A stretch of 64,000 bases of DNA from Thermoleophilia bacterium (GTDB taxonomy: Bacteria; Actinomycetota; Thermoleophilia; RBG-16-64-13): assembly GCA_026415615.1 (NCBI GenBank), contig JAOAGT010000002.1, positions 448,545-512,544 on the forward strand. The letters are read 5' to 3'. How positions within the stretch are numbered: position 1 is the stretch's first letter; every line of letters starts with the position of its first letter. The notes beneath the pieces were generated by a model, which saw nothing but the letters and a program-made list of their open reading frames with translations, searched no databases and was not told where the DNA came from. A program made the translations under genes and the position numbers. Below are positions 4,472-50,224 of the stretch, in pieces.

Positions 4472-4548
<77 letters not shown>

Positions 4549-13649: not shown

Positions 13650-14447
13650 TTACATTACCGATCCGCCTGAGACATGGAACACCTGTCCAGTCACATAGCT
13701 TGTAATGTCCGAGGCGAGGATCGCAATAGCATTTGCCATATCCCGCGCAGTGCCAAACCGGCCAAGCGGAAACTCACCCATGATGGCTGCCTGTCTTCTT
13801 TTCATCTCCTCTGGGGAAATGTTGGGGTCGGGCTCTCTTAGAATGGCTCCGAAGTTAGTGGGCACAGGACCGGGTGCCACACAGTTAACCCGAATTCCGT
13901 TTTTTCCTTCTACATACGCCAACTGCTTGGTGAACAAGTCGACGGCGTATTTGGAGATGGCGTACATACCCACCCCCATTTGGTACTGATGCGTGCTTCC
14001 CGAACCCACGTTCACGATGACCCCGTAGCCTCGTTCGCGCATATGAGGGACCACCGCCTGGGTGACGTTCATCGTGCCAATCAGGTTTAACTTAAGCTGC
14101 TTTTCCCAGACTGTAGGATCTTGCTTTTCGATGGGTACGTTGTCCTTGTGCAGGATAGCTCCGGCCACATTGCAGAGGATGTCAATCCGCCCAAATTCTT
14201 CGAGGACTTTCTGGACCATAGCTTTGACGGCCGCATTGTCAGTGATGTCGGCGCTTAGGGCAATACATCTTGGGCCCAAGCTGCGCACGGTTTCTGCGGT
14301 CTTGGCCAGGTTCTCCTCATCAATGTCTGTTACGGCGATGGCCTCGATCCCTTCCTCGGCCAACACCAAGGCCGTCTCTCTCCCTATCCCCACCTGGCTA
14401 GCTGCGCCCGTTACGAGGGCCACTTTGTTCTTGAAACCCAGATCCAT
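13650..14447 (-). CDS. short-chain dehydrogenase/reductase (SDR) family oxidoreductase
   Basis: VALVTGAASQVGIGRETALVLAEEG (TGxxxGxG), NVAGA, catalytic YAISK, PGPV motif. Confidence 0.9.
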   Translation of the reverse strand: MDLGFKNKVALVTGAASQVGIGRETALVLAEEGIEAIAVTDIDEENLAKTAETVRSLGPRCIALSADITDNAAVKAMVQKVLEEFGRIDILCNVAGAILHKDNVPIEKQDPTVWEKQLKLNLIGTMNVTQAVVPHMRERGYGVIVNVGSGSTHQYQMGVGMYAISKYAVDLFTKQLAYVEGKNGIRVNCVAPGPVPTNFGAILREPDPNISPEEMKRRQAAIMGEFPLGRFGTARDMANAIAILASDITSYVTGQVFHVSGGSVM

Positions 14448-14472: not shown

Positions 14473-16320
14473 TTATGGCCACAGCACTTGGGCTATGTCA
14501 TCGAGACCCAGCTCAAGCAGTTTGGCCTTGCTCGGCTTGCCCGTCTTCGTATCCCAGTCCATCTCGACCAGGTACTGATCGTAAATCTCCTCGTGCGTGA
14601 AGGTGATGCCGGCTCGTGGGCCCACGGTCTTGGGCGGTACGCCTCTCATCCTATCGGGGTAGAGGAAAGGCGTCTGGACACCCTCTCTAATGTTGAAGGC
14701 CTGCCTGACGTTGGTGATTCTTTCACCGGTCTTAAGCAGCTCGTCTGCGCTGATGTCCTCCCAGCCGGTCAGGGCTCTCAGAGCTTCGAGCAGTTGGTCC
14801 ACATGTGGATATGCTCCAATCACAAACTGGCAAAGCCCCATGGCGCTTGCTGCGTGCATGAAGTTGGTGCTGATCTTGTGGTAAAGGCCACGGCCGGTAC
14901 GTTGCTCGCGTGGTATATCGGGTATATTCAAGCCTGGTGGGTGTTGCCCGCCTCCCTGATTGTGTCTTCCGGGGGTGGGGTCGCAGCCATAACCAATGGC
15001 AAATCCCCAACCGCCACGAGGGTCGTGACCAGCAATCTCTTGACCGCCAATGTGCATGGCATATTTCTCTGCGCCCCGACCAATCTTCTCGGCCGCGCGC
15101 TTTACGCCGTCGGCGATGATGTCGCCAAAGCCCTCACGCTTGGCCATCTTCTCGACCATTGCCACGATAGCCTTGTGATTGCCCCAGGTCATCTCAAGGC
15201 CGTCTGTGTCCGCCTGAGAAAGCACGCCGTTTTCATAACACTCAATGGTGAAGGCGATGCAAGCACCCGCAGAGATGGTGTCTAGGCCATAACGATTGCA
15301 GATGTCGGCGGCCAGGATGATGGAGTCAAGGTTTGAGTTCAGGAGGTTGCTCCCCAGCATAGCAAGCGTCTCGTACTCGGGTTTATGAGCGCCCTCCTCA
15401 TACTTGTATTCGCCTGTTCCGGCTTTCATTAGGCCCCCGCAGGCAATGGGGCAACGCCAGCAGGCAAAGCGGCGCATCTGCTTTTCTAATACCGCTTGCC
15501 CTCCACAAGCTGCGTAGTCGGGAAGATCGACGGTAACCACACCGGCCCAATTCTTGGCTGGAGCGTCGTCGATTATGCAGCACATCTCGAATATGCCGGG
15601 GGTGCCGGTTTCGTGTAGCTGCTCAGCATGGCCGGTAAGGGCGGCCACGTGCTTTTTTCTGAGCTCTTTCATTAACTCGGGGTTGTAGGCCGGCGGGATG
15701 AGATTGCCCTGGGCCACGATAGCCTTTAGACGCTTGGAGCCCATGACCGCGCCGAGACCTGAACGGGCCGCGGCTCGGCCCTTATTGTTGATTACCCCGC
15801 TAATTAGAGCGAGCTTCTCGCTCGCTGGACCGATGCAGGCTACCTCCAGGTTCTTGCCGTGTTTGGCGCGCAAGATATCTTCAGTTTCTACAGTGTCTTT
15901 CCCCCAAATCTCTGCGGCGTCCAGGAGTTGGGCCTCCCCATTGTGAAGGTAAAGGTAGACCGGTTTCTCGGAAATTCCGGTGAAAAAGACGGCGTCGTAA
16001 CCAGCGAACTTAAGCTGCGGGCCAAAGCTCCCTCCCGAGTTGGCGTCCCCCCATCCTCCGGTGAGAGGAGATTTGCCGACTACTGTGTAGCGGGAGCCGC
16101 CGACTACGTCGGTGCCAGTGGTTATGCCGGTCACAAAACCCAACGTGGCGTCGGGGCCTAGGGGATCTACTCCTGGCTTTTGCCGGTCCCAGAGCACTCG
16201 CGCGCCTAGCCCGTATCCGCCCAGGTATTTGCGGGCGGCCTGTTCGTCGAAAGTATCTACGGTTATCTCGTGGGTTGTAAGATCCACCCAGAGGATTTTC
16301 TCCATAGCTCCAAAAGCCAA
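14473..16320 (-). CDS. aldehyde:ferredoxin oxidoreductase (AOR family, tungsten/molybdopterin-containing)
   Basis: N-terminal AOR domain KILWVDLTTHEI...GGYGLGARVLW...GKSPLTGGWGDANSGGSFG. CWRCPIACGG 4Fe-4S ligand region. 615 aa. Confidence 0.9.
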   Translation of the reverse strand: MAFGAMEKILWVDLTTHEITVDTFDEQAARKYLGGYGLGARVLWDRQKPGVDPLGPDATLGFVTGITTGTDVVGGSRYTVVGKSPLTGGWGDANSGGSFGPQLKFAGYDAVFFTGISEKPVYLYLHNGEAQLLDAAEIWGKDTVETEDILRAKHGKNLEVACIGPASEKLALISGVINNKGRAAARSGLGAVMGSKRLKAIVAQGNLIPPAYNPELMKELRKKHVAALTGHAEQLHETGTPGIFEMCCIIDDAPAKNWAGVVTVDLPDYAACGGQAVLEKQMRRFACWRCPIACGGLMKAGTGEYKYEEGAHKPEYETLAMLGSNLLNSNLDSIILAADICNRYGLDTISAGACIAFTIECYENGVLSQADTDGLEMTWGNHKAIVAMVEKMAKREGFGDIIADGVKRAAEKIGRGAEKYAMHIGGQEIAGHDPRGGWGFAIGYGCDPTPGRHNQGGGQHPPGLNIPDIPREQRTGRGLYHKISTNFMHAASAMGLCQFVIGAYPHVDQLLEALRALTGWEDISADELLKTGERITNVRQAFNIREGVQTPFLYPDRMRGVPPKTVGPRAGITFTHEEIYDQYLVEMDWDTKTGKPSKAKLLELGLDDIAQVLWP

Positions 16321-16398: not shown

Positions 16399-17715
16399 TT
16401 ACTTGCCGGTCACACTGGGAAGCCATGTCGCTAGCCCCGGGATAAGGAACAGGAGCACTACCATCAGCAGCCCGAGGGCAAAGAACGGCATGGAAGAACG
16501 AAACACCTGCCCCAGGGTAGCATGTGGTGGTGCTATAGCCTTCATAGTGTAAACATCCAGTCCAAACGGCGGAGATATCAGACCAAGCTGGATGTTAAGG
16601 AGAGAAACGACCCCGTACCAGATCAGATCGTACCCGAGGGCCTTAGCCAGCGGGAAGAAGATTGGCACCGTGATCATAACGATGCTGGCCGGATCCATGA
16701 ACATGCCGAGGAAGATAAGAATCACTTGAGTAGCGATGATTATGTAGATGGGGGCAATGTTGGCGCCTGTGGCCATATCGATCAGCTTTTGAATGGCCCC
16801 GGTGGTGGCCAGGATGCGGCTGAAGCTAATTGAGCCCACCACAATGAACATAACCATGACGGTGACGCGTACGCAGCTCATGGCGGATTTCGTTACCGTT
16901 TTCCAGCTTAACTGTCGGTAGAAAGCCGCCAGGACAAAGCAGGCTAACACGCCTAGAGCCGCTGCCTCACTCGGGGTGGCCACACCCAGGTATATGCTTC
17001 CGATCACCGCCAGAATGACAATGCCGATTGGGAGGATGTGGAATGTAAACGTGCGAAGCTTGTCTGTGAGGGAGACCTTTTCCACCTCGTAGGTGGGGGC
17101 AAGCGAAGGATCAAGTTTGCAACGTATCATGATGTAGAGGGCAAAGAGAATGGCCAGAAGCACACCGGGGATGATAATGGCCATGAGCAGCTTCCCTACT
17201 GAAATTTGCCCGATGGCTCCCAAAAAGACGGCAAGCGCGCTCGGTGGGATCAGAATGGCTAGGGTCCCGCTGGTGACGATGGGACCGTAAATCATAGCTG
17301 GTTTGTATCCTCGCGCTTCCATTTCGGGTACTAGTACCCGTCCAAGGATGCCAATCGATCCTCCACTGATGCCAATCATCGTCCCCAGAAGGACGCCGGA
17401 CCCTACGGCGAGTAGGCTTAAGCGGCCGGGCACCTTGCCTAGGAGCTTGTCTACCGCGCCCACTATTCGTGCGCCTGCTCCCGAAGAGAAGATGACGTCT
17501 CCCATCAGCACAAAAAGCGGGATGGGTAAAAACGCATAGTTTGCTACCGCGCTGTAAAAGCTCATTGCCAGCTGATCAAGACCCGGCGCCCCGCCCCAAA
17601 ACAGGACAGAACCAATGATGCACGTGAAGGTGAAAGCGAAACATATGGGCATGCCAGTCATCATGATGACAATGAGGCAACCAAACATGATAAGCAGTGA
17701 CGCCAACCATTCCAT
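16399..17715 (-). CDS. TRAP transporter large permease (DctM family)
   Basis: 438 aa polytopic membrane protein with DctM-like conserved stretches (GVATPSEAAALGV, LIPPSALAVFLGAIG). Confidence 0.9.
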   Translation of the reverse strand: MEWLASLLIMFGCLIVIMMTGMPICFAFTFTCIIGSVLFWGGAPGLDQLAMSFYSAVANYAFLPIPLFVLMGDVIFSSGAGARIVGAVDKLLGKVPGRLSLLAVGSGVLLGTMIGISGGSIGILGRVLVPEMEARGYKPAMIYGPIVTSGTLAILIPPSALAVFLGAIGQISVGKLLMAIIIPGVLLAILFALYIMIRCKLDPSLAPTYEVEKVSLTDKLRTFTFHILPIGIVILAVIGSIYLGVATPSEAAALGVLACFVLAAFYRQLSWKTVTKSAMSCVRVTVMVMFIVVGSISFSRILATTGAIQKLIDMATGANIAPIYIIIATQVILIFLGMFMDPASIVMITVPIFFPLAKALGYDLIWYGVVSLLNIQLGLISPPFGLDVYTMKAIAPPHATLGQVFRSSMPFFALGLLMVVLLFLIPGLATWLPSVTGK

Positions 17716-17724
17716 GGCTGCCTC

Positions 17725-18273
17725 CTACTCTGCTTTACCAGCTGGAGGCTGGGTCTCCGCTGGGGTCGGGGGACTGGTCTGCCGGTAGGCTTTAAAGTAG
17801 TTGACCGCGTGCCTTACTGCCTGGATTGTCAGCACCAGAAACGATATGGGAATGATCATCTCGATGGGCCACTTAACCGGATTAAGCACAGTAGCCAAGA
17901 TGAAGTGGTTGAGGTAGTCGTTGATAGTTAGCCGCGCGGTCAGAAAAAGACATAGGAGGCACAGGGCAACTACTACGCATGAAGTGGCGAAGTTAAGCAA
18001 GTTCTGGGCTCTCTTTGAAAGCATTCCAAGAATGGATTCCATCCTTACATGCCCGTGGTCGCGGTAGATGGCGGCTGTGCCAAGAAAGGTAAGCCACACC
18101 ATCGTGTAGGTCAGAAGCTCATACAAAGGTGCCCAGGTGAAGTCGACTGTCTTTCTGATGATTACGTCCTGTGCTATGGCCAAAGTGTCGAGAAGGATCA
18201 AGATGGCCGAGAGCAGCAGGAGAAAGTTAACAAGCTTGTCAAAAGCTCGGCCAGCTTTCTGTAAGAAGCGCAT
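17725..18273 (-). CDS. TRAP transporter small permease (DctQ family)
   Basis: 182 aa, four predicted TM helices, positioned immediately upstream of DctM. Confidence 0.75.
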   Translation of the reverse strand: MRFLQKAGRAFDKLVNFLLLLSAILILLDTLAIAQDVIIRKTVDFTWAPLYELLTYTMVWLTFLGTAAIYRDHGHVRMESILGMLSKRAQNLLNFATSCVVVALCLLCLFLTARLTINDYLNHFILATVLNPVKWPIEMIIPISFLVLTIQAVRHAVNYFKAYRQTSPPTPAETQPPAGKAE

Positions 18274-18458
18274 GTCACTAACCTCTCACAGGTTGGTTGA
18301 AGTACGCGCAAGCAGAGAAGCAGAGGGCGCGAAGCGGCCCTGGACAGGGCCGCTTCGCGCCCTCACTTGGGTCTTGCCTGGTTCCGCAGGATGGCAAACC
18401 ACCCCGATCCGCCTAGCCTACGACCTGTCTAGCCTATGGCTGGCTAATCCAGGCACCT

Positions 18459-19610
18459 TTACTTGGCGCGCTCAAAGTCTGGATTCACGAGCCATTCCTT
18501 GAGCTTGGGGCCAATCTCGGGCCACCTCGCGATGTCTTCGGCCCACATCGACTCGCGGTACTTCAGATAGAACTGCTTTGACTCCTCAGGCGACAGGTGA
18601 ATGATCTTAATACCCGCAGCTTCAAGATCTGCCTTTACCTTTTCCACTGTCTTGTGGAAGTGGTCCGCCATGTCAATCTCGGTTTGAATCATGGCTTGGG
18701 TGAGCACGGCCTTTTGTTTCTCAGTGAGGCTCTCCCACTTCTTGAGGTTCATGATCATCATGCCGCCGCAGGAGCTGAACGGCTCGTCCAGCATAGCCTT
18801 GGTCACAGGCGTGAGTCCGAAGTCCTGAATGCCGGGGATGCCGATGTTGTAGCCGTCGACTGTCCCGCGCTCCATGGCTGTGAAGTACTCAGTAAAGTCT
18901 ATGGGCACGCAGACTGCGCCGAGGGCCTCAATGAAGGAACGGTTGGAACCGCCGGTGGCTGCGATCTTGAGCCCCTTCAAGTCAGCTAGGCCGTTGATAA
19001 CCTTGCCGAGGTAAATGACCGTCTGCTCCTGGGGACGAGACGAGACAGAGGCCCCCAAGTACTTGATGCCGTTCTTAGCAAATTCTTCCTCGTAGTACTT
19101 AAAGGCTGGGTTGCCGTTGCGCAGCTCTGGCGGGCTGTATTCAGCTCGCCCGATGGTGCTGCATCCGGGGACCATGGTGTCGCAATAGGCGGACATTACG
19201 CTCGCGATATCCATCGTGCCCCTTTGTACTGCAGCTGGCTGGTCCGGGGCGGGGATAGCCTCTGGGCCGTTGAACTTGATGGTCATCTTGCCAGCCGAGT
19301 ATTCCTGGACCTTGTTAATGAAGTCGCGGTGCCAGTCGGCTCCCGGGGGAATATCGGGCAAGAAGCAGGCCATGGAAAGCTCGATAGGCTCTACATCAGC
19401 AATTACCTGAGGCCCCGACGCAGCTGTCGTTTCTGTAGATGGCGCAGTAGTCTCAGTGGGCGCAGCCGTAGTGGTTGTCGCGGGTGCTTGGGTGGTAGCG
19501 GTGGTAGCCGGTGCGGCTGTGGTTGTGGTGGCTTCTTCCTCTCCGCACGATACCGCCAGGATAGACAGCGCAAGTACACAGCAAATGGCTATTATGGCCA
19601 GTTTCCTCAT
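18459..19610 (-). CDS. TRAP transporter substrate-binding lipoprotein (DctP family)
   Basis: Start placed at MRKLAIIAICCVLALSILAVSCGEE (GGGGGG ribosome-binding site upstream). TTTTAAPATTATTQAPATTTTAAPTETTAPSTETT linker. DctP-fold body. The six-frame ORF extends to 19736 but that N-terminal extension lacks a signal peptide. Confidence 0.85.
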   Translation of the reverse strand: MRKLAIIAICCVLALSILAVSCGEEEATTTTAAPATTATTQAPATTTTAAPTETTAPSTETTAASGPQVIADVEPIELSMACFLPDIPPGADWHRDFINKVQEYSAGKMTIKFNGPEAIPAPDQPAAVQRGTMDIASVMSAYCDTMVPGCSTIGRAEYSPPELRNGNPAFKYYEEEFAKNGIKYLGASVSSRPQEQTVIYLGKVINGLADLKGLKIAATGGSNRSFIEALGAVCVPIDFTEYFTAMERGTVDGYNIGIPGIQDFGLTPVTKAMLDEPFSSCGGMMIMNLKKWESLTEKQKAVLTQAMIQTEIDMADHFHKTVEKVKADLEAAGIKIIHLSPEESKQFYLKYRESMWAEDIARWPEIGPKLKEWLVNPDFERAK

Positions 19611-20184
19611 GGTGCCCCCCAATCCTAAGATTGCCTGATTTTGCCAAGTCTGCCTGCTGACGTGGAAGTCATTTCTCGCAAGTGCCGAGATGTGCTCTGG
19701 TCCGCTCCAACCTCCTTTGCTCCCGTTTGCTGTCAAGCCGGAACCTGTTGATCAGTGCCTCCCGGTATCGCCAAGCGTATAGCGTGGTGCTCCCGGGCCG
19801 AGACTGCTACTCCGGCGCGCCCGACTATGTTAGTGAGGACTACTAGCACACGCTACTAGCGAATGCAACCGGTCTGTGTTATGTAGGACAGGTAATCGAG
19901 TTACTAGACAGCGTTCTTACCAGGGCAAGATGCTTCCCTCGGTACTGGGAATGAAAGGCGTGACACACAACATGGACTACCTTGACTTGCCCGCGGGCAA
20001 GAAAGAAAACACCAAGAAGGATGACGGTACTGGCCCTGAGGGCAACAGTTCGTCGCCACAGACCGGAACCACCCTCACCACCCACACCCGTGAGATCTCG
20101 GGAACTGTAGCTCGCAGTAGTGAGACCGCGGGAACAAACGGAGGAGGCAGCAAGAGGAGCTCCGTATCTCTGCGGTGGAAGACC

Positions 20185-20832
20185 ATGAAGCCCGAACAAA
20201 AGAAGGAGGCGGTTATCAAAGCCGTACTGCGGGTGATAGCCAAACACGGGGTTCAAGGTACCACCACCGCTCGTATCGCTGCAGCTCTGGGGGTATCTGA
20301 GCCGACCATCTACCGAGTTTTCCCGAGCCGGCGGGAAATGCTTCTGGCTGCGGCGCAAAGTCTATGGCGGCAACGCCGTGAAGAGCTCGAGGCGTTTGTT
20401 CCAGTTGACGCTATGGACTATCTAAGGAAGTTATCTGCGCATCACACCGCTGGCATCCAGAAAACCAGAGTAACCCGGTATCTTTACGAGCTTTCGGTTG
20501 CGCGGCCTTCTGATGGACTCCGTGACTACTTGCGCGGGGAAATGATCGCCGAAGCAGAACGTCTTGCGGCTATTGTGGAGCAAGGACAAAAAGAAGGGTG
20601 CATCCGTGCAGACGTAGACCCCGGGGAAACAGCCTGGCGGATCATGACCGTTTACTGGCTTGAGGCTATGGCCCGGCTCCATGGGCTTGAGGACATTCTT
20701 CTCACCGGGTTTTCCACCCGGTTTTTCGACGGGATCCTAACCGACATTGCTGCCGCGCCTCTAGATGCACCAGGTGAGCAGCAAACTGTAGGGCAAAGTA
20801 GCGTCAAAGCGAGCGGTCTTGAGGGAGTGTGA
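20185..20832 (+). CDS. TetR/AcrR family transcriptional regulator
   Basis: HTH: KEAVIKAVLRVIAKHGVQGTTTARIAAALGVSEPTIYRVFPSRREML. The six-frame ORF starts at 19876 with a roughly 100 aa Gly/Thr/Ser-rich extension. Either start is possible. Confidence 0.7.
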   Translation: MKPEQKKEAVIKAVLRVIAKHGVQGTTTARIAAALGVSEPTIYRVFPSRREMLLAAAQSLWRQRREELEAFVPVDAMDYLRKLSAHHTAGIQKTRVTRYLYELSVARPSDGLRDYLRGEMIAEAERLAAIVEQGQKEGCIRADVDPGETAWRIMTVYWLEAMARLHGLEDILLTGFSTRFFDGILTDIAAAPLDAPGEQQTVGQSSVKASGLEGV

Positions 20833-20836
20833 ATAG

Positions 20837-22093
20837 ATGGATCACCAGTCTCCGCAAGTCTTGTACCAAGAGAGATTAAAGAGGATTGAGGACGCCATAG
20901 CACTGCGCCAGCCGGATAGAGTCCCGATCGTGATGTCTGCCGGATATTTTCTGGCTGATCTGGGAGGCATTACCAAACAGCAGCTGCTTGAGGACCCTGA
21001 ACTTTGCCAACAGCTGCTAGAAAAGGCCGCCCTTGAATTTCAGCCTGATTCAATCTGGGGTCCTATGCCGGCGGATCCAACTCCCTCCCTTATTCTGGGG
21101 GACAGACAGAGCGCTTGGCCCGGACACCAGCTTTCGCCCAACAGCCAGTTCCAGTTCGTTGAAGGCGAATTCATGAAGGAAGACGAGTACGAGGAATTCC
21201 TGGAAGATCCCACCGACTGGACCATCCGCACCTATTTGCCGCGGGTGTTTGGGGCGCTTGAAAGCTTTGCGCAGCTGCCGCCTCCGATTCTGTTCCTGTT
21301 TGGCGGGGGTTTTGGCCTTTCTAATTTTGCAATGCTGACCTCAGGGGCATTCGCGGAGTCTTTCAAAGCTTTTGCCAAGGCCTTACAGGCGGTAGCCGAA
21401 GGCCATGAGCGGGCAGCCAGAAATCATGAGCGCATGGCGGCGTTGGGTTTTCCGCCGAGCTTCATGAACGGTCCGATTCTAACCGCTCCCTTCGACGTGA
21501 TGTCTGATGCGGTTCGTGGGATGCGCGGCATTATGCTCGACGTTATTCGGCGTCCCGACAAGCTGCTTGCGGCGCAAGAAAAGGTGATGCGCTTTGAGCT
21601 TAAGTGGGCTCTTGATTTTTGCCGGGCTACGGGCGCAAAGAGAGCTTTTCTGCCTCTTCACAGGGGGTCGGATGGCTTCATGTCGCTGAAGCAGTTTGAG
21701 ACCTTGTACTGGCCGCAGCTGAAGAAGGTTCTCGAGACCCTCATAGAGAACGGCGTGACCCCCGTGGTGTTCTACGAAGGCTGCTGGAATCAAAGACTGG
21801 AGTATCTAGCGGAGCTACCCAAGGGCAAGAGCGTAGGATGGTTCCAAGCAAGCGACATCTTCAAAGTCAAGGAAGTGCTTGGCGACACCATGTGCATCAT
21901 GGGGGGGATGCCAAACTCGCTGCTTAAGGCTGGTCCTGCCGAGGAGGTGCGTGCGTTCACCAAACGCCTTTGCGAAGAGGTTGGCAAGGGCGGGGGATTC
22001 ATCATGACCACCGCGGTTGGCGAATTGGCTGGCTGCGATCCGGATCTCATCAAGGTGTGGGTGGAGGCGACCAAGGAATTTGGGAAAGCTTAG
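20837..22093 (+). CDS. uroporphyrinogen decarboxylase (URO-D) family methyltransferase (MtaA/CmuA/MtvB-like corrinoid methyltransferase)
   Basis: 418 aa with the URO-D-fold pattern (RVPIVMSAGYFLADLGGIT, VVFYEGCWNQRLEYL, MCIMGGMPNSLL, GGGFIM). This family supplies substrate:corrinoid or methylcobamide:acceptor methyltransferases in anaerobes. Confidence 0.8.
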   Translation: MDHQSPQVLYQERLKRIEDAIALRQPDRVPIVMSAGYFLADLGGITKQQLLEDPELCQQLLEKAALEFQPDSIWGPMPADPTPSLILGDRQSAWPGHQLSPNSQFQFVEGEFMKEDEYEEFLEDPTDWTIRTYLPRVFGALESFAQLPPPILFLFGGGFGLSNFAMLTSGAFAESFKAFAKALQAVAEGHERAARNHERMAALGFPPSFMNGPILTAPFDVMSDAVRGMRGIMLDVIRRPDKLLAAQEKVMRFELKWALDFCRATGAKRAFLPLHRGSDGFMSLKQFETLYWPQLKKVLETLIENGVTPVVFYEGCWNQRLEYLAELPKGKSVGWFQASDIFKVKEVLGDTMCIMGGMPNSLLKAGPAEEVRAFTKRLCEEVGKGGGFIMTTAVGELAGCDPDLIKVWVEATKEFGKA

Positions 22094-22123
22094 CAAAGCA
22101 CAGGAAAGCTTAGGAATGAAACC

Positions 22124-22858
22124 ATGGACCTCAAGTTGAAGGATAAAGTTGCGCTCGTTACAGGAGCAGGGAGTCCCATAGGCTATGGCAGGGCAATTGC
22201 TCTCACCCTGGCCGAAGAGGGCTGTCGAGTTGCCTGTGCTGACCTACGACTTGACTGGGCAGAGGAGACCGCTGCCCTAATCAGAGAGGCAGGCGGCGAA
22301 GCCTTCGCAGTCAAGGTTGACGTGACCGACATGGCCCAGGTGGAGGCCATGGTGGAGGCGGTTGTTGCCCGATACGGGCGGATCGACATTCTCGTTAACA
22401 ACGCTGGCAAAAGCAGCATCGACAAACCTTTCATGGAAAAGACCCGGGCAGACTGGGATCTCGATATTCAGGTGAATTTGTATGGCCAAATGAACGTGGC
22501 GCGCGCAGTGATTCCTCACATGGCCAGGCAAGGCTATGGGCGCATCATTAACACTTCCGGCGGGCAGGGCTTGCCGACCGTATCCACTTACGGAGCAGCC
22601 AAAGCAGGGGTGGAAGCATTTACACATTCGTTGGCCATGGAGGTTGCCTCCTTGGGGATCATCGTAAACGCCATTGCCCCGGGGCTGGGGGAGACCGGCC
22701 TGATTTCGGCCAGCGAAGAACACAAAGAGGGGTATCGGCGTATGTCGGCCCTAAAACGCCTTTGCACTCCAGCCGACGTGGCACCTGCGGTGGCGTTTCT
22801 AGCTTCGGATGTTTGTAGCTACATGGTTGGGCAGTGCCTCAGGTTGAGTACCCACTAG
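22124..22858 (+). CDS. SDR family oxidoreductase (FabG-like)
   Basis: VALVTGAGSPIGYGRAIALTLAEEG, NNAG, catalytic YGAAK, PGLGET. Confidence 0.9.
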   Translation: MDLKLKDKVALVTGAGSPIGYGRAIALTLAEEGCRVACADLRLDWAEETAALIREAGGEAFAVKVDVTDMAQVEAMVEAVVARYGRIDILVNNAGKSSIDKPFMEKTRADWDLDIQVNLYGQMNVARAVIPHMARQGYGRIINTSGGQGLPTVSTYGAAKAGVEAFTHSLAMEVASLGIIVNAIAPGLGETGLISASEEHKEGYRRMSALKRLCTPADVAPAVAFLASDVCSYMVGQCLRLSTH

Positions 22859-22873
22859 CAAGGAGTACCAGTC

Positions 22874-23095
22874 ATGGCCATACGTCACTTTAGTCGTGAC
22901 GATTGCACGGGATGCGGGATATGTGTCGCTGCGTGTCCCATGGATGTGCTTCGTCTGGATGAGGAAGCGCAGAAGGCAACCGTAAGCTATCCCGACGACT
23001 GCATCGCCTGCTGGGGTTGCGAGTCGTTCTGTCCGCAGGGTTGTTTCGATATTTCTCCCGAACGGGCCCGCGGGGAGCTACCCGCTCCTTACTGA
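22874..23095 (+). CDS. 2x[4Fe-4S] ferredoxin
   Basis: CTGCGICVAACP and CIACWGCESFCP motifs in 73 aa. AAGGAG ribosome-binding site. Confidence 0.85.
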   Translation: MAIRHFSRDDCTGCGICVAACPMDVLRLDEEAQKATVSYPDDCIACWGCESFCPQGCFDISPERARGELPAPY

Positions 23096-23133
23096 GTCTC
23101 GCGGAGTAACAAAGGCGAGTGGGAAGGAAAGAC

Positions 23134-24849
23134 ATGAGAGGCTGGGATCAAACGCCGGTTAGGATTGCTGCCGATGTGCTGGTGCTGGGAGCGGGCGGTG
23201 CTGGCATGTGTGCGGCGCTTAAAGCGCGGGAAATCGGCGCTGATGTTCTGATGGTAGACAAGTGCGGCATCGGCTACAACGGGCAGGTGCCTATCGGGGG
23301 CGGCATACTCGCGTACATTTACCCCTCCTACGTAGAGACGTGGGTTGAGAAAGTTACCCGCCAGAGCCATTTCTTCAACAACCAGGAATGGACGTATCTC
23401 TTTGGCCGCTCAATGGACCCAGTTACTACTGAGCTTGCGAAGCTAGGGCTCACATTCTTGCGGAAAGAGGGCGAGATCGAGATTCTAACCTGGGGTCCAA
23501 ATATCCATGTGACGCTATTTGACGCGCCCAAGTCCTTAGTGGCCCTAAAAAGAACAGCCGCCGCCCGGGGCGTGCGCATGATGGACAAGATTTTTGCTGT
23601 CGATCTGCTCAAGAAAGACGACCGTGTGGTAGGAGCGGTGGCCTTTGGGTTGGTAGATGGGCGGGTTTATGTTTTTGATGCCAAGGCAGTAATTGTTGCC
23701 ACCGGGAACTGCGGCTACCAGCATGAAAAAACTTACAGCTCCGTCCAAGGCGAGGGCCCAGCTATGGGTTATCGAGCGGGGGCCAAACTCACCAACGCCG
23801 AGTTCAACAGCATGTACGTGTGGGGAGCTAAGGTCCTTGGCAAGGAGTTAATGGGCATCCATTACTACCTGTATCTCGAGAACGCCCGGGGAGAAAAGAT
23901 TATGGGCAAGCACTATCCGGAGCTGATGGTAGGAAAGCATGCCGTCTACACCTTTGATCCTCGGGTTATTGACGCCATGTACAAAGAGGTCCAGGCTGGG
24001 CTAGGACCCATCTATCTAAACCTCACGGGGCTGAGCGAGGAAGAAATTGCAGGGCTTGCCGAAGACGTCGTGGAAGAACTCTCTCATCTTATGGCAAACG
24101 ACTCCATGCGTTTGCTTCGGGAAAAGGCCGGCATTGATCCCACGAAAGAGCGCATCGAAATGTGGCCTCGTCTGTTGTACACGGGGGGCGGCATGCTGGT
24201 GGACACAGAGTGTCGAACGACTGTCCCAGGTCTTTGGGCGGCGGGGGGAGCGTGCAGCACCTTGTGGACTAACGGCGGCGGTGGTCAGGGCGGTCTAGGG
24301 GTACAGAACGCCGCGGTTACTGGATTTGTCGCTGGGGAGAGTGCAGCCAAATGGGCGGCGGAGACAACGCTTGTGCGCGCCGATGATGCCCATGTTGAGC
24401 AAGTTGTGGGGCGGATTATTGAGCCGCTTGTGCGGGAAGGGGCGGGCGACCCGTACGAGGTCACCTACCGAGTACATGAAGCAATAGTTCCCATGAAGTA
24501 CAACCGCATCCGAGAGGCTACTAGGATGCGTGAGGCACTGGGGATCTTGGCGGATGCGCGCGAAAAACTGTCTCGTATAAGCGTCCGCAATTTCCACGAT
24601 CTAGCCCGTTATCACTCAGCAGAAAGCATGCTGATGGCGGCGGAGTTTACCTACCAGGCTGCTTTAATGCGCCAGGAGAGCAGAAGCCAGCACTATAGAG
24701 AAGATTTCCCCGCGCGAGACGACGCAAATTGGCTTAAGTGGATCACGATCGAAAAGGGGGCAAACGGCCCCGAGCTTGGTGTTGTACCCGTGCCCTTGGA
24801 GAAGTACCCGCTCAAACCAGACTGGTGGCCAGCATTGAGCGGGAATTAG
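23134..24849 (+). CDS. FAD-dependent oxidoreductase, succinate dehydrogenase/fumarate reductase flavoprotein-like family
   Basis: ADVLVLGAGGAGMCAALKARE dinucleotide-binding motif. Approximately 570 aa. C-terminal helical capping domain. Start chosen at ATG 23134 (the ORF alternatively starts at 23119). Confidence 0.8.
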   Translation: MRGWDQTPVRIAADVLVLGAGGAGMCAALKAREIGADVLMVDKCGIGYNGQVPIGGGILAYIYPSYVETWVEKVTRQSHFFNNQEWTYLFGRSMDPVTTELAKLGLTFLRKEGEIEILTWGPNIHVTLFDAPKSLVALKRTAAARGVRMMDKIFAVDLLKKDDRVVGAVAFGLVDGRVYVFDAKAVIVATGNCGYQHEKTYSSVQGEGPAMGYRAGAKLTNAEFNSMYVWGAKVLGKELMGIHYYLYLENARGEKIMGKHYPELMVGKHAVYTFDPRVIDAMYKEVQAGLGPIYLNLTGLSEEEIAGLAEDVVEELSHLMANDSMRLLREKAGIDPTKERIEMWPRLLYTGGGMLVDTECRTTVPGLWAAGGACSTLWTNGGGGQGGLGVQNAAVTGFVAGESAAKWAAETTLVRADDAHVEQVVGRIIEPLVREGAGDPYEVTYRVHEAIVPMKYNRIREATRMREALGILADAREKLSRISVRNFHDLARYHSAESMLMAAEFTYQAALMRQESRSQHYREDFPARDDANWLKWITIEKGANGPELGVVPVPLEKYPLKPDWWPALSGN

Positions 24850-24900
24850 CTGGTAGTTGGATAGGCGGCCCTCAACGGTAAAGGAGGCGGGAAGAGCGCG

Positions 24901-26367
24901 ATGGTAAGCAAAGAAAGACTGGCAGAGATAGTAGGGGCTGCGAATGTCAGCAGCGAGCCGGATGTTCTTGAGCAGTACGCCAGGGACGTGAGTTTTGTCA
25001 ATCATACAAGACCGGCGTACGTGGTTAAGCCCCATACCGCCCAGGAGGTCAAGGACCTTGTCAAACTGGCCAACGAGAGCCGTACGCCTCTGGTGCCAGT
25101 GAGCTCGGGCCCACCGCACTTTCGGGGAGATACGGTGCCCACAGCGGGCGGGGCGGTGGTGGTAGACCTGAGTGAGATGAAACGCATCGTGTTTGTGGAT
25201 CGCCCGCGCAGAGTGGCCATGGTTGAGCCAGGCGTGACCTTTGGAGAACTCATTCCGGCTGCCACCAAGGAAGGGATTAGGCTAAACATGCCTCTCTTGC
25301 CTAGAACGACCAAGACAGTCGTGGGCAGCATGTTAGAGAGGGAACCTGTGGTCATGCCCAAGTATCAGTGGGACATCTCCGATCCCTTGGCGTGCGTTGA
25401 GGTAATCTTCGGCACGGGTGACGACTTCCGCACGGGCCAGGCCGCTGGACCCGGCACCATCGAAGAGCAGTGGCAGGTCGGGGGAGTGCAGAAAGCCCCC
25501 TACGGGCCTCACATTACCGCGTGGCATAGGCTCATTCAGGGAGCTCAGGGAACCATCGGAATCGTGACCTGGGCCTCTTTGCGCTGTGAGCTGCTGCCTC
25601 GGTTACAGGAGCCTTACGTCGTAGCAAGTGCGCAGCTGGGACCTTTGGTGGAGATGGCAGCCTGGTTGATTCGGCTAAGGATGGCCAACGAGTGCTTCAT
25701 TTTGTCGAATGCCAACCTGGCTGCGATCTTTGCCGAAGACTGGCCAAACGATTACGTCAAGCTAAAAGCCTCTCTGCCCTCTTGGACATTGTTCTACGTT
25801 CTGGCCGGCTACGAGTACTTCCCCGAAGAGAGGGTGGCGTCATATCAGAAGCAAGTCGTATCTCTTTGTCAGCGCCTAGCTCTGGAGCCGCTGCGGGCGG
25901 TGGGCGGACTTTCTGCGCGCAGCATCATGAAAGCTGTGCAGAACGTGTGCCCCGAACCCTACTGGAAGCTCCGCTACAAAGGCGCCTCAGAGGACGTGTT
26001 CTTCCTTACCACCAACGACAAGGTGGAAGGATTTGTAAGTACGATGCAGGCTCTTGCTGCCGAGGTAGGGTACGCTGCCTCTGACTTAGGAGTCTATGTC
26101 CAGCCAGTGGTGCAAGGTACGGCTTGTCACGTAGAGTTCAACCTCTTCTACGATCCAGGTGACAGCAAAGAAGTCGAGCGGACTAGATGTCTTGCCGGCA
26201 TTGCCACGAAAGCGTTCTTGGATGATGGCGCCTTCTTCTCTCGTCCATACGGCGAGTATGCCCGGGACATCATGAATCGCGATGCTGCGTCGCTAGATGT
26301 GCTTAAGAAGCTGAAGGGGATCTTTGATCCCAACAACATCATGAACCCGGGCAAGCTTTGCTTCTGA
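24901..26367 (+). CDS. FAD-linked oxidase (GlcD/D-lactate dehydrogenase-like, PCMH-type FAD-binding domain)
   Basis: N-terminal FAD-binding-4 pattern (VVKPHTAQEVKDLVKLANESRTPLVPVSSG). C-terminal FAD-oxidase domain. AAAGGAGG ribosome-binding site. Confidence 0.85.
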   Translation: MVSKERLAEIVGAANVSSEPDVLEQYARDVSFVNHTRPAYVVKPHTAQEVKDLVKLANESRTPLVPVSSGPPHFRGDTVPTAGGAVVVDLSEMKRIVFVDRPRRVAMVEPGVTFGELIPAATKEGIRLNMPLLPRTTKTVVGSMLEREPVVMPKYQWDISDPLACVEVIFGTGDDFRTGQAAGPGTIEEQWQVGGVQKAPYGPHITAWHRLIQGAQGTIGIVTWASLRCELLPRLQEPYVVASAQLGPLVEMAAWLIRLRMANECFILSNANLAAIFAEDWPNDYVKLKASLPSWTLFYVLAGYEYFPEERVASYQKQVVSLCQRLALEPLRAVGGLSARSIMKAVQNVCPEPYWKLRYKGASEDVFFLTTNDKVEGFVSTMQALAAEVGYAASDLGVYVQPVVQGTACHVEFNLFYDPGDSKEVERTRCLAGIATKAFLDDGAFFSRPYGEYARDIMNRDAASLDVLKKLKGIFDPNNIMNPGKLCF

Positions 26368-26429
26368 GCTTTGCTTCTGAGGCGAGGCCTGTTGGTGAGA
26401 CATTGGTCGTAGCAGAAGGAAGGAGCGAG

Positions 26430-27704
26430 ATGGCATTAGAAGATTACGCCGGTGACATGAACATGTGTTGCCGCTGCTCGGCATGCAAGTTCATACCACT
26501 GCAGATGATCAAAGGGTATAAGCATGCCTATGTGTGCCCCAGCATCTCCCGGTACAACTTCCACTTCTTCTCTGGCGGCGGCAGACTGAACCTGGGGGTG
26601 GCGGGGCTGGAGCAGGGGTTCAAATACACGCCCTGGTACCTCTCCAGTGTCTATAACTGTCAGCAATGCGGCGCCTGCGACGTGTCCTGCAAGTACGGCA
26701 TGGACATGGAGGTCCTGCTTCCCATCCAGGAGCTTCGCATCAAGGCAGTGGAAGACGGGCATGCGCATCCGGCTCTGGCGCGCGTGGTGGAGCGGATGAA
26801 CAAGACCGGGAGCATGGTCCCCATGGAAGGGGCAAGCCGTGGGGACTGGGCTGCGGACTTGGGCCTCAAAGACGCCACCCAAGAGAAGGTGGAGGTTCTC
26901 TACCACGTAGGGTGCCTGACCAGCTTTGATAAGGATATGCAGGCGGTGGCTCGGGCGACGGCCAAGGTACTTGGCGCGGCCGGGATTGACTTTGGCATCC
27001 TGGGCGATGCCGAGACCTGCTGTGGGGGGCGCGCCTACGAGATGGGCCACAAGAATGACTTCATGACTCAGGCCAAGAAGAGCATGGAGGTCATCCGGTC
27101 CACTGGGGCAAAATTCCTGGTCACGAGCTGCGCCGAGTGCTACCAGGCCTACAAGGTTCTCTACGATCGTTTTGGCCTACGGAATGATTCGGAGCTTAAG
27201 GTTCTCCATACCTCTCAGCTTCTAGACGAGGTGATAAGCCAGGGCAACCTCAAGCTAAGTGGCCGGGTCGATCTGTGTGTTACTTATCACGATCCTTGCC
27301 ATCTGGGCAGACTAGGAGAGCCCTGGATCCACTGGCAGGGTAAAAAAGTGCCGGGCGACCGCTTCATCTTTGACCCGCCGAAGCCTTACCGCCGCGGCAC
27401 TAACGGGGTATACGAGCCGCCGCGCCGGGTGCTAAAAAGCGTACCCGGGGTGATTCTCGAGGAGATGGACCGCATAAAGGAATACGCGTGGTGCGCTGGT
27501 TCGTGCGGTGGTGTTACCGACTCCAATCCGGAGTTTGCCGAATGGACCGCCGAGCAGCGTCTCGAAGAGGCGCTCTGCACAGGCGCGGAGGCGATTGTCT
27601 CGGCTACCCCGTGGGGCGAGAAGCTCCTGCGCGATGTCGCAAAGAAGAACGACGTGCAGCTCGAGGTTTATGACCTTGTTGAACTGGTCGCCCAGGCTAT
27701 CTAG
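26430..27704 (+). CDS. Fe-S oxidoreductase, GlcF/heterodisulfide-reductase-D-like (two 4Fe-4S motifs plus two CCG domains)
   Basis: CCRCSACKF and CQQCGACDVSCKYG, then HVGCLTSFD...CCGG and YHDPCHLGR cysteine-rich CCG domains. Start set at MALEDY (GAAGGAAGGAG ribosome-binding site). The ORF extends to 26358. Confidence 0.8.
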   Translation: MALEDYAGDMNMCCRCSACKFIPLQMIKGYKHAYVCPSISRYNFHFFSGGGRLNLGVAGLEQGFKYTPWYLSSVYNCQQCGACDVSCKYGMDMEVLLPIQELRIKAVEDGHAHPALARVVERMNKTGSMVPMEGASRGDWAADLGLKDATQEKVEVLYHVGCLTSFDKDMQAVARATAKVLGAAGIDFGILGDAETCCGGRAYEMGHKNDFMTQAKKSMEVIRSTGAKFLVTSCAECYQAYKVLYDRFGLRNDSELKVLHTSQLLDEVISQGNLKLSGRVDLCVTYHDPCHLGRLGEPWIHWQGKKVPGDRFIFDPPKPYRRGTNGVYEPPRRVLKSVPGVILEEMDRIKEYAWCAGSCGGVTDSNPEFAEWTAEQRLEEALCTGAEAIVSATPWGEKLLRDVAKKNDVQLEVYDLVELVAQAI

Positions 27705-27721
27705 GAAGGAGGTCGAAAGCC

Positions 27722-29212
27722 TTGGCACTTACTAAGGAAATGTATGAGGCGTTCGCAGGGGTAGTGGGGGAAGAGAATCTCTGCGACGATCCCGCCATGA
27801 TGGCTGCTTATTTCCGCACGGATTTTGCGGCGGTGGTGATGCCCAAGGACACTGCCGAAGTCCAAGCGGTCGTCAGATTGTGCAATAAGTTCAAGCTAAA
27901 GTTTAGGCCCATATGTACAGGCTGGACGGGAGTCTTCCAGCCGGGCAGCGTTCTGCTTGATCTGCGGCGGATGAACCGCATCATCGAGATCAACGAAAAG
28001 AACATGTATGCGGTAGTGGAGCCGTACGTGACTTCTGCCCAGCTGCAGGCTGAGCTGTTTAAGCGAGGGCTGAACACCAACATGAAGGGGGCAGGAGCCC
28101 AGTGTTCGGCCATGCTTCGGGGCCACGGACATCTCGATCAGTCGTGTGGCGCTGACGATCGCAATCACCTAGCTGTGGAGTGGGTGACTCCCGAGGGCGA
28201 GCTGGTCAAGATGGGATCCTGGGGCGCCATCGGTGAGTGGTTCTGTGGCGATGGGCCAGGCCCCTCTTTGCGCTCCCTTGTGTCCAGTGTGGTTCCGCCG
28301 AGCACCACTCCGGGCGTCTTCACCAAGGTGGCGATGAAGCTTTATCACTGGCCGGGGCCTGATAAGTACGCGCTGGAGGGCTACTCTCCCAAATATACGT
28401 TGCGGGAGTTTCCGCCCAACATGATGGCTCGGTACTACAGCTTCCCCACGCTTGAGAAGATGTGGCAGGCGGAGATTGCCATCGGCGAGGCGGAGATCGC
28501 TCTTGAGCTCATGGGCTTCAACGCGGCCATGGTGGCGGCGAATATCACCACCTGCAACGAAGAAGAAATGGCCATGTTTGAACGCCTCTCTAAGGAGGTG
28601 CAGGGGCCGGGCTTCTTTGTGATCATAGCTGGCGATTCTCCAGAAGACTTTGCCTACAAGAAAAAGGTCCTTGAGACTATCGTCAAGGAAAATGACGGGC
28701 AGTCGCTTAAGACAGTCGAAGATCCGGAGCTTGAGGGTATCCTGCTTACGCAGTGCACAAGAATCAGTGCATCAGTTCGGGAGACGTTCCGACCGGGTGG
28801 GTACTTCAAGTCGATTCCCATCATGGGTCAACGTGACCTTACTATTCGTTGGGCTGTAGGTGCTGGCAAGGCCAAGCTCCCGCTTATTGAGCAGGGTCTT
28901 ATTGCCGATGACGGTGGCGGATTCTTCGGCTGGGGAGTGGAGCACGGTCATCTCGGCAAGACGGAGATCTTCTGCAAGTTCAGTCCGCTTAATCCCGAGG
29001 CCTGGAAAGCGGTTAACAAGTGGCACCAGGAGCAGGTCCAGCGGGCGCTTGACGAAAAGTACTTTGCTCTCACCATGGGGCCGCAGGAAGAGATCGACAA
29101 GAAGGTTGGGCCCGCTCTCTCGAACTATCACTTGTGGTGGTACAAGGTGCTCGACGCCTTAGACCCCAACGGAGTGGTGCCTGACAAGGGCCTGAGCAAT
29201 CTTACGCCGTAG
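27722..29212 (+). CDS. FAD-binding oxidoreductase (GlcE/GlcD-like second flavoprotein subunit)
   Basis: PCMH-type FAD domain (VVMPKDTAEVQAVVRLCNKFKLKFRPICTGWTG). 496 aa. GGAAGGAGG ribosome-binding site. TTG or downstream ATG start. Confidence 0.8.
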   Translation: MALTKEMYEAFAGVVGEENLCDDPAMMAAYFRTDFAAVVMPKDTAEVQAVVRLCNKFKLKFRPICTGWTGVFQPGSVLLDLRRMNRIIEINEKNMYAVVEPYVTSAQLQAELFKRGLNTNMKGAGAQCSAMLRGHGHLDQSCGADDRNHLAVEWVTPEGELVKMGSWGAIGEWFCGDGPGPSLRSLVSSVVPPSTTPGVFTKVAMKLYHWPGPDKYALEGYSPKYTLREFPPNMMARYYSFPTLEKMWQAEIAIGEAEIALELMGFNAAMVAANITTCNEEEMAMFERLSKEVQGPGFFVIIAGDSPEDFAYKKKVLETIVKENDGQSLKTVEDPELEGILLTQCTRISASVRETFRPGGYFKSIPIMGQRDLTIRWAVGAGKAKLPLIEQGLIADDGGGFFGWGVEHGHLGKTEIFCKFSPLNPEAWKAVNKWHQEQVQRALDEKYFALTMGPQEEIDKKVGPALSNYHLWWYKVLDALDPNGVVPDKGLSNLTP

Positions 29213-29217
29213 GGGGT

Positions 29218-29258
29218 GGGCGGGCGCAGGCCCTGCAGGGCCTGCGCCCGCCCCCTTT
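29218..29258 (+). terminator. GC-rich palindromic terminator
   Basis: GGGCGGGCGCAGGCCCTGC/GCAGGGCCTGCGCCCGCCC perfect inverted repeat followed by CTTT. Confidence 0.5.
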
Positions 29259-29359
29259 CAGTACCCGTCCAATACGTGGGCCGGGAGTGTAGACTTTCTA
29301 GCCTGCTTCGCGCAGCGCTTCTCTCTTGTTTGTTTCGATAACGGCAAGGAGGTTGCGGT

Positions 29360-30883: not shown

Positions 30884-30888
30884 ACAAC

Positions 30889-31200
30889 CTATGCGTCTTT
30901 GGGCTCGCTGGGGCTGTTCTGTGGGCTGTCAGAGAAGAGACTCTCAAACCGACGCGCGGCTTTTTCTTTTTCTGCCTCCTGAGCAGCTCTTACTTTCGAT
31001 GCGGCTTCTTCCAGGGCCACTTTGTGTTGCTCTGCCCGGGCAAGCAGAGTGTCAAGCGAGACCTCCGGCTGCTCCTTCGCCACTTGCTTTAGGATAAAGA
31101 GCACTTCCTCTTGCAGCGTCCGCTGATTGTATGCCGCTCGCATGCGCAAGGCCCGGACTACTTCGTCGGGTACGTTTTTTATGGTCAGGGTGGTAGCCAT
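30889..31200 (-). CDS. ribbon-helix-helix FitA/plasmid-stability-type antitoxin-like protein
   Basis: Start at MATTLTIKNVPDEVVRALRMRAAYNQRTLQEEVLFIL (RHH beta-strand plus helices), then a charged C-terminal tail. No PIN/VapC partner adjacent. Confidence 0.5.
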   Translation of the reverse strand: MATTLTIKNVPDEVVRALRMRAAYNQRTLQEEVLFILKQVAKEQPEVSLDTLLARAEQHKVALEEAASKVRAAQEAEKEKAARRFESLFSDSPQNSPSEPKDA

Positions 31201-31219
31201 TACATTGACGCTCCTGCGT

Positions 31220-33049: not shown

Positions 33050-33430
33050 TGTATTCTCCTTTCCACTCTGAGCCGTGGTCTAGCTTCGTTGTGCCCATGA
33101 GTGGGACGCACCCTGGGACGGTTTGGTTCCGTTGCGAAGTCCAAGAGGGTACCGATCGGATCGGAGGCTGCGTACACATCTTGGCGGACCGCACCCCCTT
33201 CTGGCAACTGCTAGAGGTTGGCAGTCGCTTGGCGCGACATGCGTCTCGGGTTAAGCGGGAACGTGGAGGGAAAGACGTGCGGGGACGACTGCAGCTTGAA
33301 GATCACTGCTTGTTCTGTGAACGAGAGATATCTTCCTATGTGGCCAGCTACCTCTATACTTGCAGGCGGTGCTTTGGAAGCGCCTGGAACTAAGCTTCAT
33401 TTGACGGAACCGGGCCAGAAAGGAAAACCC

Positions 33431-41587: not shown

Positions 41588-41588
41588 C

Positions 41589-44093: not shown

Positions 44094-44107
44094 GCGCTAT
44101 AGCCCTC

Positions 44108-47417: not shown

Positions 47418-47434
47418 GAAGGGGAGATAGAACC

Positions 47435-50180: not shown

Positions 50181-50224
50181 TGCTGTTGGACGGTCAAATC
50201 AACAAGAAGTAAAGGAGTGGTCAG

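Follow-up and report, generated by a model that had tools for sequence, protein, structure and literature searches.

A probable corrinoid methyltransferase with a URO-D fold in a conserved redox gene cluster of uncultured Actinomycetota, with partner genes probably dispersed in the genome

A 64,000-nucleotide stretch of a Thermoleophilia bacterium genome (contig JAOAGT010000002.1; hereafter the window) encodes a protein of the URO-D family at 20837..22093. This protein is very probably a corrinoid-dependent substrate:corrinoid methyltransferase (MT-I), working with the canonical partners of its class, the genes of which are probably dispersed in the genome. An original prediction, made from the sequence, had described a URO-D-family corrinoid methyltransferase embedded in a redox operon. 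Our analysis agrees: the gene is an open reading frame (ORF) of 418 amino acids (aa) with a match to PF01208, and SDR, ferredoxin, flavoprotein and CCG-domain genes lie downstream. The observation was largely correct, and no unusual methyl-transfer route, as had also been proposed, is needed.

The assignment of the protein to the MT-I class, and not to the uroporphyrinogen decarboxylases (HemE), was borne out by sequence comparison. The window MT-I is nearer to a characterised MT-I, CdmB, than to HemE or MtaA. CdmB (PDB 9rui) was its closest solved protein, matched over the full length (E=7e-38, 133.9 bits), with ~31% identity across 323 aligned residues. In the same search of PDB sequences, HemE was matched at E=1.6e-4 by the last 135 residues only, and MtaA gave no match at E<=1. 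The Pfam model PF01208 itself covered residues 215-414 only, in the C-terminal half (70.7 bits). Among the NCBIfam models, the hemE equivalog TIGR01464 (cut-off 302.95) covered residues 281-413 only and reached 22.7 bits, and the MtaA-type model PRK06252 (cut-off 244) reached 30.8 bits. Judged by its sequence, the protein is neither HemE nor a zinc-dependent, MtaA-type enzyme. The original prediction had suggested looking for zinc ligands in the alignment; the H-x-C motif of MtaA and MtbA is absent from the window MT-I, in which the family-invariant H275 precedes R276-G277, and CdmB is likewise without zinc. Two invariant cysteines, C353 and C379, are present in the family. Where HemE would have its conserved N-terminal arginine motif, the corresponding region of the window MT-I reads PDRVPIVMSAGYF.

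An AF2 model of the protein, built from 21 homologues, had a pLDDT of 85 and a pTM of 0.86. Foldseek matched it in the PDB to UroD and MtaA chains of 337-357 aa (TMt 0.6-0.69). HemE structures ranked top (TMt ~0.6-0.66), and the second-best structural match was MtaA of M. mazei (4ay7, TMt 0.69). The fold library predates the CdmB structures, and this ranking therefore cannot separate MT-I from HemE. The model exceeds the UroD and MtaA chains by ~60-80 residues. The surplus lies in the N-terminal half, and residues ~75-115 and 139-202 are devoid of core-barrel strands. These additions resemble the extensions described for CdmB. Features of the MT-I branch were thus seen, namely a URO-D TIM barrel with extra segments and a length of ~420 aa rather than ~340.

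The gene is real and under strong purifying selection: compared with a 90%-identical homologue in the same gene neighbourhood, its dN/dS is 0.02. Its family has the signature motifs PLHRGSDGF, FYEG[CV]W and TMCIxGGMPNS, and a mean column identity of 72% in an alignment of Actinomycetota and Chloroflexota sequences. Every residue that is invariant in relatives linked to a corrinoid protein is kept in the window MT-I. At the pocket position, the family has H275-R-G-S-D (in PLHRGSDGF), whereas CdmB has W-Y-N (in PVWYN--SF). This polar motif argues for a substrate more polar than a haloalkane.

To collect relatives, two motifs of the family were searched for in the genomes that represent 185,579 species, which yielded 323 confirmed loci. 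Genomic contexts were counted in the best 80 of these, 53 of which had at least 5 kb on each side. A corrinoid protein gene directly adjoined MT-I in 27 of the 53 well-flanked loci, the canonical arrangement. Within 10 kb, these 27 loci also had genes for the pterin-binding methyltransferase (MT-II, in 20), the activase RACo (in 22) and a DUF1638 protein (in 23). Nine of the 53 had the redox cluster and 17, in varied contexts, had no partner, so orphan MT-I genes are common in the family. Chloroflexota and others, with 53-61% identity to the window MT-I, had the gene within canonical operons. Their layout was a GntR gene and a corrinoid protein gene, divergent from DUF1638, RACo, the Pterin_bind MT-II and one to four pairs of corrinoid protein and MT-I.

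The exact 17-gene cluster of the window was found in uncultured Actinomycetota, in metagenome-assembled genomes (MAGs) labelled Thermoleophilia, Gaiellales and RBG_16_64_13, with MT-I identities of 66-72%. Its order is TRAP-AOR-SDR-cupin-bicupin-SnoaL, divergent from TetR-MT-I-SDR-ferredoxin-APS-reductase-like flavoprotein-FAD4-CCG-FAD4 (AOR, aldehyde:ferredoxin oxidoreductase). At one locus (L031), a corrinoid protein gene was inserted between TetR and MT-I of this same cluster. The MT-I of L031 was 93% identical to a copy in another context (L010), which is also linked to a corrinoid protein. In a neighbour-joining tree (no bootstrap), the actinobacterial MT-I adjacent to a corrinoid protein, those of L031, L010 and L009, nested within the orphan clade. 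The pair of corrinoid protein and MT-I at L010 abuts a chalcone-isomerase-like gene and a cluster of ETF, LysR, acyl-CoA dehydrogenase and pyrogallol-hydroxytransferase-like genes.

The original prediction had noted that the window holds a single DxHxxG corrinoid protein, next to a GntR regulator and fhs. Domain searches and its DIHDIG motif identified this protein, here named CP2, as the only one in the window, 39 kb from MT-I. It had also been noted that no pterin-binding methyltransferase and no activating enzyme are present. This held: Pfam scans of all substantial ORFs of the window and tblastn (E<=1) revealed no Pterin_bind/MtrH-like protein, no RACo and no DUF1638. We attribute the absence to the point at which the window ends and to gene dispersal.

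Orthologues of CP2 were sought and their contexts read. The Fhs of the window was 80-95% identical to those of relatives. In the closest relative (L091/L092), Fhs was 95%, the corrinoid protein 86%, GntR 84% and FocA 87% identical to the window. There, FocA-CP-GntR lies divergent to fhs-FTCD_C(fchA)-FolD-DUF5981-MTHFR-Pyr_redox. The last 48 residues encoded on the contig match the N-terminus of a second type of corrinoid protein, CP1, at 81% identity. This CP1-type gene is reached ~7.5 kb downstream of the fhs start. Two genomes had the orphan MT-I cluster and the fhs operon on the same contig, ~92 kb and ~1.29 Mb apart (contig ranges). In both, CP1, DUF1638 and a Pterin_bind MT-II follow and complete the operon, with a URO-D paralogue as an optional member after CP1 (fhs-FTCD_C-FolD-DUF5981-MTHFR-Pyr_redox-CP1-(URO-D)-DUF1638-Pterin_bind, with GntR-CP2 divergent to it). 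By synteny, the fhs of the window is predicted to be the first gene of an fhs-fchA-folD-DUF5981-metF-lpd-like-CP1-(URO-D)-DUF1638-MT-II operon. A second corrinoid protein and MT-II would most likely be encoded ~6-9 kb beyond position 64000.

CP2 has the cap and Rossmann-domain architecture, with DxHxxG, of methyltransferase-cognate corrinoid proteins, and scored 124 bits with TIGR02370, under the 215 cut-off of that model. The 89 corrinoid proteins from the loci formed two sequence clusters, of 26 and 62 members. A GntR gene was adjacent in 26 of 26 members of the first cluster, to which CP2 belongs. Nearly all members of the second cluster adjoined MT-I, and often MT-II too. CP2 is therefore not of the corrinoid protein type that is usual beside this MT-I. 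The GntR-CP2 pair is typically divergent from the methyltransferase operon in Chloroflexota, or from the fhs/tetrahydrofolate (THF) operon in Actinomycetota. Because this position, divergent to C1 or methyltransferase operons, is constant in two phyla, the sequence data suggest that the pair may be a corrinoid-based regulatory module. Literature searches for pairs of GntR and a corrinoid protein, and for the 17-gene cluster, returned nothing specific.

The sequences show to which family MT-I belongs, that its contexts are conserved and that it is under purifying selection. The mechanism proposed here, including the class of substrate, the corrinoid protein used and the fate of the product, we infer from the family. 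MT-I would bind a methylated substrate, most likely a carboxylate-bearing aryl methyl ether imported by the adjacent TRAP transporter, and would offer it to the Co(I) of a small corrinoid protein, to which the methyl group would move. MT-II would then hand the methyl group to THF. The carrier and the MT-II are predicted to be the shared CP1 and MT-II with which the fhs (THF methyl-branch) operon closes; the GntR-linked CP2 is a second corrinoid protein, distinct from CP1, that goes with this operon. Methyl-THF would be oxidised by MetF/DUF5981, FolD, FchA and Fhs to formate, which FocA would export, or it would be used for acetyl-CoA. A RACo-type activase encoded elsewhere would repair oxidised Co(II). 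Once demethylated, the product would pass to the co-regulated enzymes of the cluster: the SDRs, the ferredoxin, the APS-reductase-like flavoprotein, a GlcDEF/VAO-like flavoprotein complex, the cupins, the SnoaL protein and the AOR, under the control of TetR. For the substrate itself, we give a methoxylated aromatic acid an even chance or slightly better. This guess is based on the TRAP transporter, the polarity of the pocket motif, polyphenol-type genes in the vicinity and a flavoprotein weakly similar to vanillyl-alcohol oxidase (VAO) and p-cresol methylhydroxylase (PCMH).

Several observations weigh against this reading. Of the 12 distinct genomes that have the cluster, 11 encode no corrinoid protein, MT-II or RACo within 10 kb of MT-I, and neither does the window. 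The 17 further relatives without a partner nearby point the same way; their surroundings have only scattered cupin, SDR, AOR and MFS transporter genes in common, and follow no common scheme. RACo was not located in any genome carrying the orphan cluster and is not part of the fhs operon. The partner genes outside the window are predicted from synteny with relatives rather than seen. The substrate was assigned from its context: the TRAP transporter, a pyrogallol-hydroxytransferase-like cluster nearby and the weak VAO/PCMH-like similarity. It cannot be taken over from CdmB, which has a different pocket motif. Finally, the enzyme was placed among the O-demethylases through CdmB and a published tree, and not through the sequences of MtvB, OdmB, VdmB and MtoB.

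The non-canonical route of the original prediction, in which methyl groups would reach THF through CP2 and other methyltransferase-like proteins of the window, without a pterin-binding MT-II or activating enzyme, is highly improbable. MT-II and RACo are indeed absent from the window, its sole corrinoid protein adjoins fhs, and the GntR-linked corrinoid protein subfamily accompanies the MT-I family at many loci. However, the two tandem methyltransferase-like paralogues on which the proposal drew do not exist. The only S-adenosylmethionine (SAM)-methyltransferase-like ORFs, at 7864..9591 (+, 575 aa) and 29360..30883 (+, 507 aa), have a weak class-I domain and 40% mutual identity. About 20 kb separates them, neither is kept in related clusters, and the only tandem pair near MT-I is cupin-like. 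Moreover, in relatives that share the cluster the fhs operon closes with genes for CP1, DUF1638 and MT-II, and the operon of the closest relative extends past the point matching the window end. A classical partner set located elsewhere had been named as evidence against the route, and its corrinoid protein and MT-II were found in relatives, but RACo was not. THF remains a plausible destination for the methyl groups; it is the non-canonical part that lacks support, as the MT-I family is standard in operons of MT-II, corrinoid protein, MT-I, RACo and DUF1638.

A corrinoid might no longer be used at all in the orphan cluster, the protein being a cofactor-free decarboxylase, as HemE is on acetate side chains, or another TIM-barrel enzyme acting on a pathway intermediate. 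Such a role would suit the URO-D fold and the top Foldseek rank of HemE structures, the cluster lacking a corrinoid protein in 11 of 12 distinct genomes, and the purely redox and catabolic nature of its other genes. We consider it very unlikely, since the hemE equivalog score is far below its cut-off, all residues invariant in the relatives linked to a corrinoid protein are retained, and L031 has a cassette of corrinoid protein and MT-I at the same position, its MT-I being 93% identical to a copy linked to a corrinoid protein. The Foldseek ranking is not discriminating, CdmB being absent from the fold library. The protein could also be a true corrinoid-dependent MT-I with a methyl donor other than an aryl methyl ether, such as a halomethane, a methylated amine, a methylthio compound or a methylated sugar acid (for example, 4-O-methylglucuronate). 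Chloromethane is dehalogenated by the closest solved relative, the organic acids that TRAP transporters carry are of many kinds, and the direct comparison covered CdmB but no characterised O-demethylase. On the other hand, the polar and charged residues at the CdmB pocket position would suit a hydrophobic haloalkane poorly, relatives adjoin the chalcone-isomerase-like gene and the pyrogallol-hydroxytransferase-like cluster, the latter also found in the window, and the MT-I cluster includes a flavoprotein with weak similarity to VAO and PCMH. Overall, another donor appears rather unlikely.

The nearest well-described system is the chloromethane dehalogenase/methyltransferase CdmBCA of Acetobacterium dehalogenans, of which CdmB is the MT-I (PDB 9rui; PMC13222342). 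CdmB is a homodimer with a URO-D TIM barrel with extensions and no zinc, and its clade in the UroD superfamily includes the O-demethylases MtvB, OdmB, VdmB and MtoB (PMC13222342). The published identity between CdmB and MtoB is 31% (PMC13222342), the same level as between CdmB and the window MT-I. The two proteins are alike in their URO-D TIM barrel, added segments in the N-terminal half, length of ~420-430 aa, full-length alignment and lack of a zinc motif or zinc. At many loci, the family of the window MT-I is likewise encoded next to an activase, a pterin-binding MT-II and a corrinoid protein. In contrast to CdmB, the window MT-I is found in a redox/TRAP catabolic cluster without partners, and its family in uncultured Actinomycetota and Chloroflexota, not in Bacillota or Asgard archaea. 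We infer that a haloalkane is an unlikely substrate.

The O-demethylases MtvB (Moorella), OdmB (Acetobacterium), VdmB and MtoB (archaea), to which the window MT-I is likened via the published tree, share with its family a system logic in which MT-I acts together with a corrinoid protein, an MT-II and an activating enzyme. The context in the window fits the metabolism of methoxylated aromatics as well. We know of no characterised O-demethylase MT-I that is encoded within a TRAP/AOR/flavoprotein cluster of this kind. MtaA and MtbA, the zinc-containing methylcobamide:coenzyme M methyltransferases (MT2), also have the URO-D fold, but the window MT-I lacks H-x-C, is ~80 residues longer and stays under the PRK06252 cut-off. 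HemE has the fold in common too, whereas the genomic partners of the window family are corrinoid proteins and not haem genes.

The genes of the cluster and those at the right end of the window are listed in Table 1.

Table 1 Coordinates and supporting evidence of the genes discussed, in window positions.
Feature	Position	Strand	Evidence and remarks
MT-I, URO-D-fold substrate:corrinoid methyltransferase	20837..22093	+	418 aa, ATG start; Pfam, CdmB match, AF2 model, dN/dS
TetR-family regulator	19876..20832	+	TetR_N at residues 114-159; kept upstream of MT-I in related clusters
SDR oxidoreductase	22124..22858	+	Conserved cluster member, 71-80% identity in relatives
Ferredoxin, 73 aa, 2x[4Fe-4S]-type	22874..23095	+	Conserved cluster member
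Fumarate-reductase/APS-reductase-like FAD flavoprotein	23119..24849	+	Pfam FAD_binding_2 and Succ_DH_flav_C
FAD_binding_4 flavoprotein (GlcD-like)	24901..26367	+	Pfam/NCBIfam; conserved in relatives
Fe-S/CCG-domain protein, Fer4/CCG (GlcF/TfrB/HdrD-like)	26358..27704	+	Domain search; conserved in relatives
Second FAD_binding_4 flavoprotein	27722..29212	+	Pfam; conserved in relatives
TRAP transporter (DctP 18459..19736, DctQ 17725..18273, DctM 16399..17715)	16399..19736	-	Domain search
Aldehyde:ferredoxin oxidoreductase, AOR family	14473..16320	-	Pfam AFOR_N and AFOR_C
SDR	13650..14447	-	Conserved cluster member
Cupin-like protein, 169 aa	13137..13646	-	HxH...E motif read from sequence; conserved cluster member
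Bicupin-like protein, 341 aa	12067..13092	-	HxH...E motif read from sequence; conserved cluster member
SnoaL_4 protein	11285..12025	-	Conserved cluster member
FocA formate channel	59946..60950	-	NCBIfam formate_focA, 291.7 bits; downstream of CP2; syntenic in L091/L092
Corrinoid protein CP2, GntR-linked subfamily	60881..61534	-	Pfam B12-binding_2 PF02607 and B12-binding PF02310; motif DIHDIG
GntR/UTRA (HutC/PhnF-like) regulator	61592..62491	-	Upstream of CP2, same direction; divergent from fhs
fhs, formate-tetrahydrofolate ligase	62658..64000	+	ATG at 62658; 447 aa visible, 3' end outside the window

The TetR stop lies 4 nucleotides ahead of the MT-I start. The TetR ORF, called at 318 aa, is probably over-extended at its N-terminus, because relatives have 208-239 aa; its start would lie ~100 codons past the first GTG, and 19876..20170 would be an artefact. 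The solved protein nearest to the APS-reductase-like flavoprotein was the PAPS reductase alpha subunit (E=4e-40). The second FAD_binding_4 flavoprotein was nearest to PCMH and VAO, a weak match confined to the FAD domain. The TRAP genes run divergently from the MT-I operon, and the closest solved TRAP binding protein was 4mnc. The AOR matched that of P. furiosus at E=3e-97, and its solved homologues are tungsten enzymes. An interpretation of the cluster as a class II benzoyl-CoA reductase (BamB-type) was dropped, as the AOR is nearest to true aldehyde oxidoreductases.

The tandem cupin-like pair was conserved wherever the MT-I cluster occurred. At several Chloroflexota loci (L024, L027 and L044), a protein of the 169-aa type was also seen with orphan MT-I, and a third protein related to the pair is encoded in the window at 33218..33898 (+). 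None of the three cupin-like proteins had a Pfam or PDB match, including a PDB sequence search with the 341-aa protein, and relaxed Pfam scans of the uncharacterised ORFs gave nothing useful. Promoter and terminator scans of 19500..31500 found sites no more numerous than in shuffled sequence. Rfam searches of the whole window detected no cobalamin or THF riboswitch; a tRNA-Met (CAT) at 4472..4548 (+) was the sole Rfam/ARAGORN match.

The polyphenol-type cluster of L010 also occurs in the window at 40736..50680, in syntenic order and with 70-78% identity. The genes of 40114..50680 encode a pyrogallol-hydroxytransferase-like molybdoenzyme (AhtL-like, 41589..44093) with a Fer4_11/CarboxypepD_reg subunit, an acyl-CoA dehydrogenase, LysR, ETF beta and alpha, an ETF-QO-like protein and a CMD-like protein. 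This gene content hints at trihydroxybenzene or flavonoid catabolism. Right after the ETF cluster, 50837..54617 (+) encodes a radical SAM protein, an 857-aa molybdopterin oxidoreductase with an Fe4S4 domain and a small Fer4 protein.

At the right end of the window, FocA probably starts later than called, because the called start overlaps CP2. A 227-aa ORF inside fhs (62817..63500, -) is spurious. The pair of GntR and corrinoid protein was also seen at L005, L035, L047, L074, L088, L090, L091 and other loci. At L088 (10641..14756), a large Fer2/Pyr_redox/molybdopterin protein pair resembling formate dehydrogenase replaces FocA after the GntR-linked corrinoid protein, a further link between the module and the metabolism of formate and C1 units.

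More tentatively, the 17-gene cluster could encode an anaerobic pathway, not described so far, by which uncultured Thermoleophilia-like Actinomycetota process a methoxylated aromatic acid derived from lignin or flavonoids, and in which O-demethylation is coupled to new ferredoxin- and Fe-S-linked dehydrogenases, with the GntR-CP pair as a corrinoid-based regulatory sensor and not a catalytic methyl carrier. We regard this combination as possible but doubtful.

Partner genes missing from a 64-kb window are no evidence for a new route. The window MT-I is an uncharacterised member of an established class, and what stands out is the conserved actinobacterial cluster that holds it, together with the GntR-linked subfamily of corrinoid proteins. 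Members of the Actinomycetota genus RBG-16-64-13 were reported to be among the most actively methylotrophic bacteria in a thawing permafrost mire (PMC10805028). The RBG-16-64-13 label is borne by the MAG of one of the closest relatives (L007). The LHRGSDGF family counts at least 323 loci in the representative genomes and over 4,000 proteins in collections of metagenomes; none of its members is characterised, and it lacks an annotation model of its own. Methyl groups from methoxylated plant aromatics enter anaerobic C1 metabolism by corrinoid-dependent demethylation. A standard MT-I that one lineage has fixed in a conserved catabolic cluster is a concrete target for a substrate search.

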